Shown: positions 856-64,000 of the stretch, piece after piece | Layout: every line of letters begins with the position of its first letter | How positions within the stretch are numbered: position 1 is the first letter of the stretch | From: Eremomyces bilateralis CBS 781.70 | Lineage: Eukaryota | Length of the DNA: 64,000 nt | Reading direction: 5' to 3' (one strand) | NCBI GenBank assembly: GCA_010015585.1 | Contig: ML975176.1 | Translations under genes and position numbers: made by a program | Notes under the pieces: model-generated | Database searches by the model: none | What the model was told of the DNA's origin: nothing | Seen by the model: the letters and a program-made list of their open reading frames with translations, nothing else

Positions 856-2142
856 ACGGAGGACCCCTTCAAGGGTTCTTGCTCACGCCAAGTCCCGGAA
901 ATGAAACTATTTCTAATTAGGATACATGTACTAATGGCTAAGTCCCACCCATTCGCGTTACCTCAGTCCTTTCTCGTATGGTCTCTCCCTTCCTTATAAC
1001 TACTCGTTCCCTCCTTCTAGCTCAATTATCTGTTGAATATGTCATGGAATCCGCTCAATCCAAGCCTATACCTTCTCCTCCTATTCTTTGGAGCACCTTT
1101 CCTTGTCGTCGCTCTCTTCATGTATAGCCAACATGGCTCGATAACGTTTAGATCTGGGGAATTCCCGCACCAAAGAAGTCGCTGTACTCCGTACAAATCG
1201 TATACTCGTTGCTGTGCGTGATGGGCGTGCGACGGAGCTTTATCCTCTTGAACAATCGTGTCTAGCCGATCCTTCTGATATTCCTCGACGAAAGGAAATA
1301 GCTTCGGAATTAATATCTTTGTCTAATATCGATACTAGTCGATTCCTTCTCCTTTCCGTCGAACTAGTTTCCCTGTCTTCTGCGTCTATTTCCAGATCGG
1401 CTTTCTTCTAGAGGGATTCCGGAGTCCCATCCTCCTTATACCGGTCTCAAGCTCCTATTGGTCTCGACGAATAGGTTTAAGCAAGTCGTTCATCTCTTCT
1501 AATGCCTTTTCCGCGTCGGTTTTCTCCTGTTTCGTTTCCGGCATCCAGCAATGGCAAGGGCCTTTCTTATCATACGTAAAGCAGGCCCAGAACATAAATT
1601 CTGTATATCCTTTCCAACGCTCCCGGATATAGGTCTTTGCAAGCGCCTCGTCTTTCGTCCTCTATACTCGATAACTACCTCTCCGGTGGAGTAATACGAT
1701 AGCCATCTCGTCACTCCAAATAACGATTTTCCAATCTTCCAGTGTCCAATGCTCGTGCTCTTTCGCAAACTTCAACCGTTCAGCTTTCATCTTCTTTGTC
1801 AATCTAGGCTTCCTCGTCGGCTTCGTCTTGTTGAAGCCGGCTTTCTTGAGCACTCTCCAGATGGTAGACTCGGAGACAATCTAACCGCCTCTATAAAGCT
1901 CGCCCGCGATATCAGCGCAAGTCTTCTCCCTCCTATATCGATCCTGACGCACTTTGGTAAGAACAGTATTGCGATGTCAGTATTTGGAGCCATTTCGTAA
2001 CGCGAGAGAGACTTCATAAGATTGAAAATAGGAGCGATGAAGGACGGATTCGATGTATTTAGGATTCCTCGGCTGGTATTGTGGGACTGCCAAGAAAGTG
2101 GCGTATTTAGCGTGGGCAAGAACTTTTGAAAGGGACTTCCGT
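856..2142 (-). mobile_element. Tc1/mariner (DD34E) DNA transposon, internally deleted and RIP-mutated
   Basis: 33-bp terminal inverted repeats at 856-888 (ACGGAGGACCCCTTCAAGGGTTCTTGCTCACGC) and 2110-2142 (reverse complement ACGGAAGTCCCTTTCAAAAGTTCTTGCCCACGC), 27/33 identical. TA at 854-855 and at 2142-2143, so the exact boundary is ambiguous by 1 nt. Encloses a transposase remnant. Confidence 0.9.
963..1993 (-). pseudogene. Tc1/mariner transposase pseudogene
   Basis: Manual minus-strand translation: MAPNTDIA [frameshift] ...KVRQDRYRREKTCADIAGEL...KKAGFNKTKPTRKP...IWSDE...FMFWACF...IVQEDKAPSH...WCGNSPDLNVIEPCW...AWIERIP...LEGGNE. There are 34 residues between the second D and the E. Several in-frame TAG stops sit where Trp/Gln is expected. 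Confidence 0.92.
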
Positions 2143-3093: not shown

Positions 3094-5749
3094 ATGCTTG
3101 AATTTCTCTTTGTCCTGTCACTATTGGCGCTTTGCTTCTCATTGGCAGTTGCACAAGACTCATCATCTAACCTGGTGCAGCAGAGCTCATCAGTGACTCT
3201 CGCTGGTAAGTCGTTTGATCACTTTATATGTCAGCGAACTGAAGTCAATAGTTGGCGTTTCAGTGTCAGCAAACGGCTCACGGGTGTCACGAATGCCACA
3301 AGTATGTTCGAGCTGTTCACTGAATGGTTTCGTATCTACTCTGCCTCCACCTGGTCTTCAGGAATTGAACCCTGGGAATGGGACACTTACTGCCCAGCCT
3401 GACGTATCTGTGACAGCCACAACACTTACTAGGGTTACATCCTTTTTGGATGGACGTCCAGCTTCGACGACAATCGATACTATCACGGTAGCTTTTACCA
3501 TCGCTCGGCCAAAAGACCCCATGAGAACCTCTGTCTTCACCACAGATGGGATACCATACACGTCAAACGACTTTCCCGGGATAATCTTGTAAGATACTTT
3601 GGAGGAGATCAGAAGCTACGCTAATTATCTCAGTACCTACCCATCTCCATATGTTGCTTTCACGGGTTTCCAATACGCGTCAGCTTGTACGGCTCCACCG
3701 ACAGCAATTCCCGTCGACTATAAACAACATGTTCAGGACCTTGTTCTCCCTGCAGCGGAAGCAAGTCCGTTGATCCCTAACCGTGTGCGCAACGCTCTCG
3801 AGACATTCCCCGAGTTCCAACAATCCGGAGCGATGGACCTATCCAACTGCTCGGGAACCGTCGGCGACAACCTGCCGCTAATCGGACGAAGGTTGGTTGA
3901 TAGGCATAAGCTCTACCCAACCCCATCGTACGATGAGTTACCAAAGAGAAAACCAATTCCGTTTGCTTCTCGTCGCGAACCTTGGCCAACCACCACCGGG
4001 TTTGTGCAGATCGTACCACAACAAAACAGCACCATAGAGCACACGTCGGTCCTACTTTTGGTGGGTGTTCAGGATACTCAGATTACCATTGAGGGCAAAT
4101 CTGGGGGAGATGACCTACCAGCGGATCCAAATCCCCCTGGCGGTAGTGGTGAACGAAATCAAAGTGGAGGAAATGAAGGCGGAGGGAACAATAACGGAGG
4201 AGGGAATACCAACGAAGGCGGCAACACCAACGAAGGCGGGAACTCTGTGGGAGGAGGGAACGCCAACAACGGAGGATGGAACACTAACAACGGAGGAAAT
4301 ACGAACGGGGGAGAGAATCCCAATGGAAGAGGGGGCAACGGCGGTAGCAATTCGGGTGGCGAAAGCAGTGGAAGCGGAAGCGGAACCCCCGACGGTTCTG
4401 TGGCCACTCCTGGATCTGGAAGCCCAGGTGGAGGCATCGATGGGGGTTGCTCGACCGTTGCTGGCTGCATTGCCGCAGGGCTAGGAGGATTGTCTGGGGG
4501 TCCATCGACTGGCGGGACCTCTTCCGGTGATGGCTCGTCGAACGGTGGCGGCTCCAGTGGGGGTTCTTCGGGCAGTTCTTCTGGTGGCGGAAGCTCAGGC
4601 GGAACTACATCCTCGAATGGTGGACCGCCAGGTGGGGAGTCTTCTGGCGGAGCATCTTCAGTCGGGAGTCCTTCAGGCGGCACGGCTTCAGGCGGAGGGT
4701 CTTCGAGTGGAGGGTCTTCGTCTTCCGGCAGTGGATCTTTGGGAGGAGGCTCGTCAAGCGGAGGGCCTTCAGGCGGCGATTCACCGAATAATGGTCCAGG
4801 CAATGGAGGCTCTAGCTCTGGATCACCAGGCACAAACCCATCAAATGGGGGACCTGGACTTGGAGAGTCATCCGGTGGAAGTAGGTCCTTGAATGAGGGC
4901 TCGTCCAGTCCTCAATCCATTCCTATCGGTGGATCAACCGTCCAAGTCTATTCTGGGAATGATGGGGTTGTTATCGGAGGAGAGACTATCCAACCCGGAC
5001 AAATCGCAACGATCAACGGAGTCTCCATATCGTTCCCTACCCCTGGACCTGGTGGCCCAGCCCTTGTGATAGGTGGAAGCAGTACAGCCGCGCTCAGTCA
5101 AGGCCCTCCTACACCACCTACCATTGTCCTTGGCACTGCTACAATCACCGCCAATCCCTCCGGATCTTTCGTTATTGGGCCAGGACAGTCTCTCACTCCC
5201 GGTGGTACCATCACTGCCAATGGCCAGGCCATTTCCCTTGCCCCCGATGGTTCCTATGTTGTGATCAACGGACAAATATCGACACTCCGAGGCCTCGGAT
5301 CGATTCCTTCTGCTTCTCAAGTTCCTGCGGCGCTCACTGTCAATGGGAGGATCTACTCAGCAACAGTAAAAGATGGGAAGATGTGGTACAGTGTTGCTTC
5401 AGGCACCACGCTTACCCCTGGAGGTATTGCAACTATATCAGGTACCGTCATTAGTCTTGGAACAGATGCATCCGAATTGGTTATCGGAAGTTCAACGAGC
5501 AAACTTCAACTGGGATCGGTACTTGCATCGACAACAGGGAGTGGGTCAATCCCGACTGCTTCTAGCGCAGGCTCATCGGGAAGCAAGTCCATATCATCAA
5601 GCACGGGTCCATCCGGTTCATCGGTGTCCGCAACTAGATCGAGCAGTGCGGCTCCCTCGACAGGTAGTAGCGGAGTAGGGAGAATGAAGGATGGTATTGT
5701 CGAAGGATGGTTGATGAGTCTCTCAAGTTTTCTGATTTGGGTTTTGTGA
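3094..5749 (+). CDS. Secreted, probably GPI-anchored Gly/Ser/Thr-rich cell-wall protein (3 exons)
   Basis: Signal peptide MLEFLFVLSLLALCFSLAVA. Introns 3206-3251 and 3589-3633 join ORFs 3094, 3215 and 3599 in frame. Long G/S/N low-complexity tract, GQxLTPGG-type beta repeats, Ser/Thr-rich stalk and hydrophobic C-terminus (WLMSLSSFLIWVL). Confidence 0.85.
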
Positions 5750-31839: not shown

Positions 31840-32779
31840 GTCTTCAACCACTTGCAGTTAGCTCTGAATCCTATGAAATGGTGTGGATGTAAGGAACTGA
31901 AGGCGGAAACGTGAGACTTAAGGAAGCCTGGTCGCCTGGTGAATGGCATATTGAAGGCATAGGTCTCGATTGGTATCAACAACATGAGAACCCACCACAA
32001 TGGTGAAAAGTGCTGGCACAAGACATTGAATATTTGTGTTTAAGATGCGATTGAAAGTTGGATGAGCAGATTCCCCTGAAATTCCATGGAACGGAATTGA
32101 GTCATGTAGTCACGTGCTTCGAATTTTCCAAGATCACTACCTGACGCATGTATCACCACCGAGTCCAGGCCATCTTCAATGAGCGCCCGACTATGATTCG
32201 ATCTACTTCACCCGAAGACGGCGAACTCATCAAGATGCGCCCTTGAATACGAAGTACCTGTACAACAAATCGCCACTAGACTCTCGTACAGACGGGCAAG
32301 CCAGAGGTGCTTGAATGGCGTTTGGTACTTCATCACAATCCGTATGCCAGCTTCAATCGCCATGTGTCGCCTCATTGGGGTTGGTGGGTGGTATGTTCAC
32401 ATCAGACACGGTACACCTACAGCACCGGAGAGGGACTAGCGATGCTATCATGGCTCGATTGATGGCGAGAATCTCGATTGATGGCGATGAAGTGGTCCCC
32501 GGGTGGAAAGGAGTTTTGTGACATCGTAAACGGATTCTGTGGGAGGCGCGTGTGGGAGGCGCGTATGAAAGACATGGATTCAACGAATCTGCTCCGAGGA
32601 GTTTAGGAATCGCGTTTCTGGGCCGAGAAATCGAGGCGGATCACCGATCACAAGGGAATGGTGTGTCGTGGATTCTAGTCATGAATTTTTGGGATATGGA
32701 AGATACCACAATTGCCTCGAAACATCGAGGCTCCGAACCGATTGTTTCCGCTCAACTCCGAATAATATGCATCGACACT

Positions 32780-60398: not shown

Positions 60399-61135
60399 CT
60401 TAACGAGGGATTCGAGAGTGATGAGATAAGGATAACGCGAAACTAGTCCAAAACTACCGGATCGATGAAAAATCTCCCCGTGACTTCAGAAATATATGTA
60501 AAGGGATGTATCACTTGTATGGGAAATGGGAAATATATTAAATTTACGGACGTATTCCGTCACTAACTAACTTCCGGTTTGCTGAGACGGCGAAGTTCGG
60601 ACTTTGAACGTTGCTGGAAGGGGTTACAGCAATTATCTAATGAGAAGCCACTAATGGGCAGAGTAACAAGTTGGAGATAGGCGGCAAGGGGCCCATTCTA
60701 ATAATATTTTGGTTAATCTCTCAGTAACTTGAACCTTCTTGATTACCATTCACACTTCATCTTTCTCACCGCATCGGCTAATGCAATGGTGTTAGCCGGC
60801 TATGAGAGATGAATCTCATTCTACGGCAGCTAGCCATCTTTTCATGTAGAAGCCAGGCTTCTGCGATCATCATGGAGTTACAAGGCCTAACCCGTAGAGT
60901 TGCACAGCATCCACTGTGCGCCCAGGCCTTCTTGACCGGGGGGTGGTCGGATGGTCTGTGTAGGCCGATGGCCGGCCTGGCGAATAGGTGAGCATTATTA
61001 CGGAATACATTTCTATATACGGTACATATTTCTAAGCTGGGGAAGCCTTCTTTGTTTACATCGAAGAAGGTTGGACGCTGAATCAACCCTTAACCTAATC
61101 AGGCTTGGGCTCTCAGCCTTAGCGAACCAAGGGTT

Positions 61136-61500
61136 TCAACCCATAACAATCCGCTTCACAGTCGTACCAAGTTCCCTCTTCGTCCGCCGCCAATACTGGT
61201 CCCTGAACTGTACAGGGCCGATAGTTCCGAACCTAACGGCCGTAAGAAATGCGGCGGTCTATACAAGTGTGATGAGGAAGCCAATAGGGAAGATGTCTAG
61301 TGTCACGCCTGGCAAGACCAAAGACGTAACGGTCGCAGCCAGCGCCGATACTGAAGCTTGGGTCGCGGGGTCGATCGTGCTCGTGCCCTAGTTTGCGAAG
61401 ACGCCGGACATAAAGCTGGCTTCGGTGCTAGATAGCGTAGTATTGACTACAGCCTGAGTGACCGCACGCGTCGTAGATAGCTCTTCTTCTTTAGCTTTGC
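61136..61500 (-). pseudogene. C-terminal fragment of a fungal membrane-protein gene with RIP-type stops
   Basis: VNTTLSSTEASFMSGVFAN*...LVLPGVTLDIFPIGFLITLV*TAAFLTAVRFGTIGPVQFRDQYWRR. Two in-frame TAG stops (probably from CAG and TGG) and no obvious 5' part. Confidence 0.6.
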
Positions 61501-62019
61501 AATAAATGAAAGTGGTTCTCGTAACTTCTGCGATCAAACCGTCTCAACGGTTAGATATATCAGCGGTTTAGAATTCAATCGGGAAATTTCCTCGATCGTT
61601 TTGCTTAATTAACAGTTGGTTAGCGGTTGTGTCGCATCACGCGTGGGTGATGATTAAGCACGTTTGCTTCTTTAGCTCAGTTGCTGTAGAGTCACAACGC
61701 AAGTTGGTCTTGACGATTCCCATTGTCTCTCCAAAAAGGAGATCTAGCTAGCAAAACAGTTGAAGATAACTGGGACATATCATAAGGGCAATTTTGGTGC
61801 GTCATGGCCTGGGTTATTAGGCAAAAATGCCAAGACCTTAGTTCTTCACACATAACACCCATCGCGGAAATGGTACTCTTATTGCCTGTAACTAACAACA
61901 ATAACAGTAGCAGTAGCAGAGAAAGTATGGATATCCATGCGTACGCGCATATTTTTATGTTTAACCATCTTGGTTGAGATCTTCGGTAGGGACGGTAAGC
62001 TGTTAGATATATCGACTTA

Positions 62020-62049
62020 TAAGTAACAAGTGACAAGTGACAAGTGACC
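62020..62049. repeat. Short tandem (ACAAGTG)n repeat
   Basis: TAAGTAACAAGTGACAAGTGACAAGTGACC. Confidence 0.7.
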
Positions 62050-62099
62050 AAAGTCAACTTGTTGTATTGAAATCCCGACTACCCAAGGTACAGCATAAT

Positions 62100-64000
62100 A
62101 GGGTGAGCCTTCTGAGATAGAGATTCGTACGTAGGTGGAATTTCTCTTTCTAAAATAGGAATTCGTACGGAAGGGGTGATTCATTTGACTCAGTAAGGTG
62201 TAGTTATAAGTCTAAGCTTCTGTCCTATGGATACTCGATTCCTCCTTTTCCCTCTCCTCCTCCTCCCCTTTCTCCTTCTCCTCTTCCTCTTCCTTCTTCT
62301 CTTCCTCTTCCTTCTCTTCCTGATTCTCTTGATCCTCCTCTTCGTTTTACTTCCTCCTGCTTGATTCCAAATTAATTTATTATCGTACGAGCACCTCCTC
62401 TATCAATCTTAGAGCTTATCCAAGTAGATTACTCTTTTTTTAAGCAATCTCCTTGTAGAGATGATGTAAACTCCACTTTGATCTCGTACGCACCTCTTCT
62501 AACCGTGTTACCGCAAGGAGAGCTGGTATTCTCTTCGCCTCAGATACTGTACGGATATAATCGATAATAGCTTTTCTACGACTATACCACGTCTTCTCTG
62601 AATCTTTCTGTCGCCATAAGGCACCATAACTTAACTCTAACGCTTGTACGGAAGGATTAGGTGCAAATCCTTCAAACCACTCTCGCCAGAGTTGATCAAC
62701 GGTTTCTACCGTACGAGACATAGTATAGATTGGCTCTCCATTCTCTTTAATCGGCCGATCAGGTAGCGGTGGTACAGTCGAAGGGCTGGCGGCCAATAGC
62801 GGTAGAGCTGAAGAGGTGGTAGGAGTAGAGCGTGCGATAGAAACCGGAGTTTCTATTACCGGCGTTGAAGGTATTCCCGTGCCGGGAGCGGCCGTCCGAA
62901 CCGCTGGCAATGGATCCTGGAGTAAGGATAAGTGTCCTACATTAAGGTAAAGAGGTGTTCTGCCACTGAATACATCATCTAGAACCGTACGCTGGCGGCA
63001 CTGTTCCGTACGAAGAGAGTCGAACATCTCTTGTAATCTTTGTCCAATATTGGTCTCCATCACACTCAACCGATCTGCAATTATCGGAACAGCTTATCGT
63101 ACGAGTACATCTTGCGGTTGAACTACTTCAGCAGCAAGAGTTTGCCTCATCCTCCGCATAAAGTCAAGGTACTCCGGATCAGAGAAGATCGGATGCTGGA
63201 AGAGAGGGTGGTGTGGAAACTCATCGCGGATTAGTACGAAGTCCTGAAGAAGCACCGTACGAAGATAATCAAGTAGCCGGAGGAAGGCCTTTCCAGCAAG
63301 GTCATTCCGATCTCCCTCACCCTGTTCTTCTAACTGGTGATCCTCACGCACGGTGCTCTCATTCTGTTGGAACCGCTCGATCCACTCGTCCACCCATGGC
63401 CAGATCTTCCGTACGAGAGTCTCAGGAGGCAGGACCTGTGCTCGCGGAATGAAGTAGTCTCCTCGGCCGCTGGGAGAGAAGCCAGCGGCTGCTCGTACGA
63501 ACTTTCGGGGAATGTGGCTGAGGTATGCATTCGACATGGAATCCGAATTCCATCGTCCAGCTCTCTGAATCTGAGATTCGCTGACCCCAAGTATCTCCGC
63601 ATGCTGAGCACCTTGCTTTCGTCCGGCATGTGTCTTCTTGTATGAAGAGATCTCATAGCGGTCAAAGATCTCATTGACCTACTGCAGCTGAGTAGCGTAC
63701 GAGAGAGGATGGGTATTCTGGCCACCTTTCAAAATCTTCGTCCGATACTAATCTGAGCGCTGCTTGAAGGTCGGCGGCGGTTCTTTCTCAAGGTCCCAGC
63801 GGAAGAAGAGGTAGAACGCCAGTTGAGAGACTAAACATTTCCAATGCTCCTTGTGCCGTACGGTAACACCATACTCTAGCTTCCCAAAGGCGTTTGTCTT
63901 CCCGTTGTCTATAATCATACAGAGAACACGGCAATCTGTTGCTCCTTCATTCTGCAGCGGGACGGCGAAGAGATCAGGCAGTTCTCCGTTTCGTACAGTC
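62100..64000 (-). mobile_element. Crypton-type tyrosine-recombinase transposon (Ndc10-II-like YR + GCR1_C), RIP-mutated, runs off the window end
   Basis: One reading frame 64000->62440: ...DLFAVPLQNEG...IDNGKTNAFGKLEYG..RH...KKTHAGRKQGAQHAE...RAGRWNSDSMSNAYL..., then C-terminal YTMSRTVETVDQLWREWFEG...WYSRRKAII (GCR1_C-like). Stops at 63748, 63679 and 63094. The 3' boundary is approximate. Confidence 0.85.

Follow-up and report, generated by a model that had tools for sequence, protein, structure and literature searches.

Cryptons lack terminal inverted repeats (TIRs), and we know of no account of how their recombinase distinguishes its own DNA beyond a crossover word of 5–6 bp. CryptonF elements were reportedly described by Goodwin et al. 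in 2003. In the CryptonF layout, as set out in passages of Kojima & Jurka (2011, PMC3212892), a tyrosine-recombinase core and a GCR1_C domain stand in one protein; there GCR1_C is called a DNA-binding domain and tyrosine recombinases are said to bind DNA as multimers. According to parts of López-Cortegano et al. (2023, PMC9977147), an active CryptonF of Chlamydomonas recombines at a 5-bp word, CACCG/CAYCG. Here a Crypton-type element is described from the right end of a 64,000-nucleotide stretch (the window) of contig ML975176.1 of Eremomyces bilateralis CBS 781.70. Judged by its sequence, it is a previously undescribed member of CryptonF, and it carries a dense array of the palindrome CGTACG. 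This array is genuine and is separate from codon usage, from base composition and from repeat-induced point mutation (RIP).

Arrays of short words are also known from other systems. In maize Ac/Ds, AAACGG hexamers in both orientations are bound by the element's own enzyme and are confined to the non-coding subterminal 200–250 bp. Lambda integrase has arm-type sites and phage Mu an internal activation sequence; both are accessory to the crossover site and build the recombination complex. Whole bacterial genomes carry iterated words that prevail over codon choice, namely the palindrome HIP1 in cyanobacteria and uptake sequences in Neisseria and Haemophilus.

The locus described here agrees with CryptonF in having one long gene with the tyrosine-recombinase core followed by GCR1_C, a fungal host and an apparently low copy number, no TIRs being visible in the part inside the window, but no internal word array is described for that group, and its listed 6-bp terminal repeats are AT-rich, none being CGTACG. 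A word search of the texts of PMC3212892 and PMC13465315 found no mention of palindromes, and, among the matches listed, titles and opening lines of abstracts on CGTACG in transposons and on CryptonF tyrosine recombinases held no internal word array of a Crypton. With Ac/Ds the locus shares many short, CpG-containing words inside the element at irregular spacing; unlike AAACGG, however, CGTACG is palindromic and runs in three phases across at least 1.5 kb of coding sequence, and its binding by the element's enzyme is putative. A recombinase with a second DNA-binding domain and putative accessory sites recalls lambda and Mu, which have few sites in a compact region, whereas here at least 13 are spread over about 1.8 kb. 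As with HIP1 and the uptake sequences, a short word occurs in genes far above expectation and in all phases, but the excess is confined to one eukaryotic mobile element, the adjacent host genes using the word at 3 of 46 possible places. The TA excess, the CA/TG deficit and the C-to-T-type nonsense mutations found in the element are like those of RIP-mutated repeats in filamentous ascomycetes, but the composition signal disappears once the word is masked and the differences between copies are not CpA-biased; to our knowledge, there is no route by which RIP would lead to one specific hexamer. The array may be an unusual form of the enzyme-binding word arrays known from transposons, one that runs through coding sequence.

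The window contained 23 copies of CGTACG, compared with a mean of 7.3 and a maximum of 12 in dinucleotide shuffles, none of 100 of which reached 23. Ten of them, the copy at 61940 included, lay in the first 62,125 bases, before 62126, the first being at 3927. In the region 61900–64000, 14 copies were observed against Markov expectations of 0.46 (order 0), 0.28 (order 1), 1.0 (order 2) and 3.0 (order 3), and their density was 43-fold that of the remainder of the window. The initial annotation of this DNA had listed 13 copies from 62126 to 63862 and one at 61940, all of which were exact at these positions; its estimates of about 0.4 copies expected and about ten in the preceding 62 kb agreed with the order-0 value and with the count obtained. 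The 13 exact copies lie within about 1.8 kb of the repeated unit, approximately one per 150 bp, with irregular gaps of 21 to 276 bp and no fixed spacing. Their flanks are weakly symmetric (Y-CGTACG-R), position −1 being a pyrimidine in 22 of 28 half-sites.

When hexamers of 61900–64000 were scored, the other enriched words were overlaps of CGTACG (GTACGA, CCGTAC, CTCGTA and GCGTAC), words of a CT-rich low-complexity tract aside; no other TA-containing or TA-centred word was enriched. This tract (62240..62360), located in the 3' non-coding part and GA-rich in the mRNA sense, accounts for the word CTCTTC, with 14 copies and a 6-fold enrichment. Four one-mismatch forms with the GTAC core were present (TGTACG twice, CGTACA and AGTACG), a count within chance, and their interpretation as relics of decayed sites was rejected on that ground.

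The constraint lies at the level of the nucleotides. CGTACG can be encoded by 55 of the 8000 residue triplets, namely x-Val-Arg, Arg-Thr-x and [A/P/S/T]-Tyr-[A/D/E/G/V]. The protein read from the minus strand between 63999 and 62443 (519 codons, P0001) has 18 such places, 10 of which carry CGTACG, two a one-transition form and one CGTGCG. Permutation of its synonymous codons gave a mean of 1.54 copies and a maximum of 7 in 20,000 permutations, against the 10 observed. After correction for the post-hoc choice of one word among 4096, 1 of 3000 permutations yielded any hexamer with a Poisson P as small. A cruder family-wise test on the maximum z was not extreme (7.3, whereas the largest z of each permutation averaged 5.8 and reached up to 9.9). 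Since z is inflated for rare words, this test is uninformative and the minimum-P test was used in its place. The six host open reading frames (ORFs) of the window had the word at 3 of 46 encodable places (Fisher P 5e-5 versus the element). The Thr codon was ACG in 8 of 9 Arg-Thr pairs, compared with 2 of 23 elsewhere in P0001 (P 4e-5).

Ten of the 13 array sites fall inside the ORF, in three phases of the minus-strand frame: NNC-GTA-CGN (Val-Arg) four times, CGT-ACG (Arg-Thr) five times and TCG-TAC-G (Ser-Tyr) once. The array is thus not confined to non-coding subterminal DNA. In the essentially non-coding interval 61900–62442, four copies stood against 0.073 expected (Poisson P 1e-6), those at 62384, 62164 and 62126 being 3' of the natural stop codon. 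The three codon phases and the continuation past the stop had both been reported in the initial annotation, and its proposal of a nucleotide-level constraint is borne out by the codon permutations and the four non-coding sites. That CGTACG fills over half of the positions open to it in the protein, and recurs beyond the stop, suggests a DNA signal overlaid on the gene.

The array lies on the 3' two thirds of a CryptonF-type gene (62416..63999, minus strand), the 5' third being beyond the window end. The frame is interrupted by TAG, TAG and TAA codons. Pfam matched P0001 to NDC10_II (E 1.7e-27 and 1.9e-12) and then to GCR1_C (PF12550, E 1.5e-23, positions 1–80 of 80). The tyrosine-recombinase-like NDC10_II part, delimited by the Pfam match and by conserved columns, occupies 63169..63999, and the GCR1_C DNA-binding domain 62488..62727 (residues about 425–504 of P0001). 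Homologues with the same architecture numbered 66, the best of them, P0002, being 78% identical; among proteins of solved structure only Ndc10/CBF3 subunit A was related. Residues K34, H124-x-x-R127, W150 and Y159 of P0001 were invariant or nearly so in alignments of 13 and 33 sequences; the first catalytic Arg is just beyond the window end and was seen in homologues only. The assignment to a Crypton-type element made in the initial annotation is therefore supported by the CryptonF layout, with the NDC10_II recombinase part followed by GCR1_C, and by the homologues that share it.

The copy in the window is a pseudogene with premature stops. Both TAG codons (63748–63750 and 63679–63681) occupy the place of a Trp (TGG) in all close homologues, and the in-frame TAA at 63094–63096 that of a Gln. 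Since P0002 reads on through 'HKKSNLLG', the real end of the frame is the natural stop at 62416–62418, and the TAA at 62440–62442, eight codons ahead of it, is premature. Judged by neighbouring genes in the window, the host is a Dothideomycete; the COPI alpha encoded there is 93% identical to the protein of Eremomyces bilateralis. A tblastn search of the 64 kb with P0001 found only the element itself and no second copy; a 41-nt inverted match at 32278 (71%) was rejected as a homologue.

Regarding the individual sites, the four Val-Arg copies, given in coding sense, are those at 63857..63862 (ACC-GTA-CGG, T-V-R, a perfect CCGTACGG), 63494..63499 (TTC-GTA-CGA, F-V-R), 63410..63415 (CTC-GTA-CGG, L-V-R) and 63098..63103 (CTC-GTA-CGA, followed by the in-frame TAA). 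The five Arg-Thr copies, all CGT-ACG, are those at 63256..63261 (L-R-T-V), 63007..63012 (L-R-T-E), 62986..62991 (Q-R-T-V), 62710..62715 (S-R-T-V, within GCR1_C) and 62485..62490 (V-R-T-R). The Ser-Tyr copy is at 63696..63701 (TCG-TAC-GCT, S-Y-A), and its Tyr is conserved throughout the family. In the 3' non-coding region are the copies at 62384..62389 (27 nt 3' of the natural stop), 62164..62169 (extended form CGTACGGAAG) and 62126..62131, whereas that at 61940..61945 is probably outside the repeated unit. The 12-mer TTATCGTACGAG is present twice, at 62380–62391 and 63094–63105, and reads CTC-GTA-CGA-TAA ('...LVR*') on the coding strand; one copy is at a premature stop and the other just past the natural stop. 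The one-mismatch forms are TGTACG at 62548..62553 (encodable R-T-V, coding strand CGT-ACA-GTA, a possible decayed site), TGTACG at 62645..62650 (P-S-V-Q), AGTACG at 63233..63238 and CGTACA at 63992..63997 (encodable T-V-R, ACT-GTA-CGA).

Sequencing runs X1 and X2, from one sample of one study, contained at least one further version of the element, about 5% divergent, and summed read depth over the element was 2 to 3.7 times that of the flank. This second version has CAA where the window has TAA (63096 A>G and 62442 A>G), and G at 63235 and 63239, which restores Ser at the latter position and gives Ser-Val as in the homologues. The copy in the window is therefore the more damaged one, and the second version may be intact. 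Among the 40 differences listed (of 79), to which all statements on differences refer, none was internal to a CGTACG hexamer. The sites at 62710, 63256 and 63410 were covered and unchanged, as was that at 63007, which lies in the shared flank of a two-version assembly bubble and is therefore identical in both; the site at 63098 is probably also the same. At these sites, the less-mutated copy showed no CGCACG or CGTGCG in place of the array words. The TGTACG at 62645 likewise has the same letters in both versions.

Similarity between the two versions ends at about 62022–62065, which marks the probable 3' limit of the element and places the copy at 61940 probably outside it. A GTGACAA-type microsatellite is located approximately there (62024..62060). 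A separate locus in X1 and X2 shares with the window only this 37-nt microsatellite and is unlike it on both sides. One contig of X2 matches rightwards from 62446 and has 20 unlike letters to its left, and so may point to yet another version, one that parts from the window sequence exactly where the ORF ends. In run X3, which bears the same species label, the match was a 39-nt low-complexity piece only, and no inference was drawn from it.

Outside the window, the DNA of two relatives was compared, a metagenome locus (L001) and a fungal contig in a bacterial bin (L002); a viral scan gave none. L001 (51% amino-acid identity, 64% GC) has 4 CGTACG in 2052 nt, all in codon triplets for x-Tyr-[D/V], one of which, A-Y-D, is homologous to the Ser-Tyr site of the window; L002 (34% identity, 65% GC) has 2 in 1643 nt. 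In all six the word is read as NCG-TAC-G, which GC-rich codon usage predicts. L001 needs two frameshifts and has in-frame stops, being either a decayed copy or an error-rich contig. The Crypton-like gene fragment L002 is fungal and sits in an Acidimicrobiales metagenome-assembled genome, most likely as a binning contaminant. The possibility raised in the initial annotation that orthologous elements lack the enrichment is thus answered in part: the array is absent from two distant GC-rich relatives, and the comparison is confined to these.

The close homologues, P0002 among them, stem from environmental contigs and were compared as proteins. At four motif positions P0002 differs from the window by Val-to-Ile three times and by Thr-to-Met once, changes that CpG transitions would give. 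In 22 of 67 family proteins, encodable triplets were 2–3 times more frequent than composition predicts (z of 3 or more). In about 16 alignment columns, at least 8 of the 33 sequences had such a triplet; therefore, much of the excess represents a conserved protein motif and is only suggestive. Proteins rich in Val-Arg and Arg-Thr include P0018 (24 encodable triplets, 7.1 expected), P0005, P0033 and P0044, and those showing no excess, at similar distance from the query, P0008, P0025 and P0031.

Several explanations have to be weighed. The array could be a mutational by-product, in which RIP-like changes of CpA to TpA and TpG to TpA turned CGCACG and CGTGCG into a functionless CGTACG, within an ancestor whose codons were rich in GC and in CpG and whose protein had many Val-Arg (C|GTG|CG) and Arg-Thr (CGC-ACG) dipeptides; we consider this quite unlikely. 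RIP is usually recognised by a TpA/ApT ratio above about 0.89 together with a (CpA+TpG)/(ApC+GpT) ratio below about 1.03. The raw values of 62061–64000, 0.95 and 0.97, agree with such a history, but they fell to 0.80 and 1.15, short of these thresholds, when the word and its one-mismatch forms were masked. By bin, the indices were 0.67 and 1.14 in the coding part (63001–64000) and 1.23 and 0.79 in the 3' non-coding part (62001–63000); the 1-kb bins passing both were within 61001–63000 only (1.11/0.98 and 1.23/0.79), that is, in intergenic DNA to the left of the element and in its 3' non-coding part, not in the coding part. Codon choice shows a shift of the expected kind: GTA makes up 47% of the Val codons in the element and 11% in the host ORFs, Leu TTA+CTA versus TTG+CTG stands at 17:9 and 58:96, respectively (P 0.01), and Arg CGT is found mostly ahead of ACN (7 of 9). 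This synonymous shift implies an estimated conversion of about 45%, yet 14 of the 16 CG[YR]CG words have TA at their centre, and one CGCACG and one CGTGCG are left (hand-calculated binomial P about 6e-4). The four premature stops (two TGG to TAG and two CAA to TAA) are such as C-to-T or G-to-A changes produce, L002 has CGC-ACG-GTG opposite CGT-ACG-GTA at 62710, two of five Arg-Thr pairs are CGCACG in the GC-rich relatives, and Val-Arg and Arg-Thr are conserved at many places in the family, all of which such an origin would lead one to expect. On the other hand, the differences between the versions comprise 12 transversions and transitions spread over CpA (9), CpG (7), CpC (7) and CpT (5), without the CpA/TpG dominance typical of RIP. 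The 16 precursors in 2.1 kb, four of them in non-coding DNA, would themselves be about 30-fold enriched over the remaining window (15 in 62 kb), the preference for ACG after Arg is unreachable by C-to-T or G-to-A changes, the TA of the Ser-Tyr site is ancestral because its Tyr is conserved family-wide, and other TA-centred words show no enrichment. A RIP-like history may have supplied some of the central TAs, but, in agreement with the initial annotation, RIP does not explain the array as a whole. A Tc1/mariner-type relic in the same window, a DDE_3 fragment at 1029–1322 (minus strand) with a weak match (E 1.6e-5) below Pfam's cut-off, contains no CGTACG and, as the one unrelated repeat of the window considered, does not share the enrichment; its lack of the word had also been noted previously. 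It is located among short broken ORFs (about 800–2300), and the bin 1001–2000 is borderline RIP-like (0.85/0.99).

Zn2Cys6 factors follow rules based on CCG half-sites, and a host protein might read the array, either a dimeric transcription factor (a Zn2Cys6 protein on everted CCG-N2-CGG, for instance) or a silencing or methylation-sensing system using the two CpGs of each site; the factor could be recruited by the element for its expression, or the host could recognise the element in this way. This is considered unlikely, although less so than the other alternatives. It draws on the same evidence for a double-stranded DNA motif as the reading that we favour below, and also on the 28 of the region's 112 CpGs that are inside the word, on the perfect CCGTACGG at 63857, and on three of the four one-mismatch forms being CpG transitions, as expected for methylated, decaying CpGs, with which the changes in P0002 also fit; these forms are, however, no more numerous than chance, the ten other copies in the window are scattered and not clustered at promoters, and, among the matches listed, the titles of literature on fungal binding sites pointed to no CGTACG-specific factor. 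An occurrence of CGTACG in PMC4976313 belongs to an unrelated table of systematic evolution of ligands by exponential enrichment (SELEX). That the element uses CGTACG for its crossover or as its target, in the way that fungal CryptonF have their 6-bp terminal repeats and the Chlamydomonas element has CACCG/CAYCG, is very improbable; internal copies would then draw in related elements preferentially, self-nesting being a safe harbour. The 6 bp of the word are the length of the CryptonF terminal direct repeats, but none of the 13 repeats listed is CGTACG and all are AT-rich (PMC3212892, Additional file 1); and while any copy of the short word in the genome can recombine with an active CryptonF, according to parts of PMC9977147, no CGTACG is found at the 3' limit of similarity, the nearest being at 61940 and 62126. 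Internal palindromic crossover sites should give deletions and inversions and should therefore be selected against. RNA hexamers bound by protein are known from the Mmi1 system of fission yeast (determinant of selective removal, DSR), and CGUACG in the mRNA could be bound similarly or could pair with other copies. The sites are indeed in the ORF and 3' untranslated region of the transcribed strand regardless of frame, but an RNA motif needs no palindrome with symmetric flanks, and a 921-nt stretch in mRNA sense folded no better than its shuffles (z −0.28, 8 of 20 as good), so that a signal in RNA is regarded as highly improbable.

The reading that we favour, tentatively and with somewhat less than even confidence, is a selected array of binding sites on double-stranded DNA, putatively bound by the multimeric recombinase or GCR1_C protein that the element itself encodes. 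The sequence shows the array, the family of the gene that bears it and the array's independence of RIP, base composition and codon usage; selection, its action on double-stranded DNA, the reader and the function are our inferences. As the word is a palindrome with weakly symmetric flanks, is blind to frame and to the coding boundary and has no fixed spacing, its likeliest reader is a dimeric or multimeric protein acting on double-stranded DNA, and, given two DNA-binding modules in a protein of a multimeric family, the element's own product is the most economical candidate reader. In such a system, selection on the DNA itself would keep the array across the coding and the 3' non-coding part, and the protein, with its recombinase core and C-terminal GCR1_C, would bind the CGTACG sites as a dimer or larger assembly. 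These would be accessory, 'arm-type' or enhancer-like sites and not the place of crossover, comparable to the arm sites of lambda Int, the enhancer of Mu or the subterminal hexamers of Ac, and would load the recombinase along the element, which may mark, compact or synapse it for excision and integration, or control its own expression.

Several points weigh against this interpretation. The known site of Gcr1 is the CT box (CTTCC/GGAAG), which is not CGTACG, and CTTCC/GGAAG is unenriched once the low-complexity tract is set aside (8 occurrences over about 2 kb, compared with about 3.4 per kb elsewhere). The single copy seen in full is a pseudogene, and any function would be that of its active ancestors. 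As a test, the conservation in the second version has little power, because at about 5% divergence some 1.8 hexamer hits would be expected among the differences listed. CGTACG occupies none of 8 Arg-Thr or Val-Arg places in L001 and L002 together, compared with 9 of 16 in the window (P 0.009), and as the array is missing from these distant relatives it is not a family-wide requirement. The conserved Val-Arg and Arg-Thr motifs provide unusually many places for CGTACG without a cause at the DNA level. Finally, the TpG-to-TpA-like synonymous shift in the element is real, with 9 GTA codons outside the motif, so the central TA of some sites may be mutational.

It is also conceivable, but very doubtful, that in a CryptonF subclade CGTACG serves as a code for recognition in cis, and that its age has allowed it to shape the amino-acid sequence of the recombinase, as the 22 of 67 family proteins with an excess of encodable triplets might suggest. 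If so, the protein, alone or with a host partner that reads CpG or CCG, would coat its own DNA through these sites. Point centromeres are recognised by CBF3 through the Crypton-derived Ndc10 and the CCG-reading Cep3, and a code of this kind would be a direct mobile-element antecedent of that recognition.

If the array is instead a mutational by-product, it shows that a single over-used word is able to inflate RIP indices. An element-wide array of one palindrome that dictates codons at more than half of the possible positions would be a concrete candidate for the missing cis signal of Cryptons and, if true, would add to the few examples in eukaryotes of a code in the DNA overlaid on protein-coding sequence. 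It also bears on how the Crypton-derived proteins Gcr1, Hot1/Msn1 and Ndc10 gained their DNA targets.

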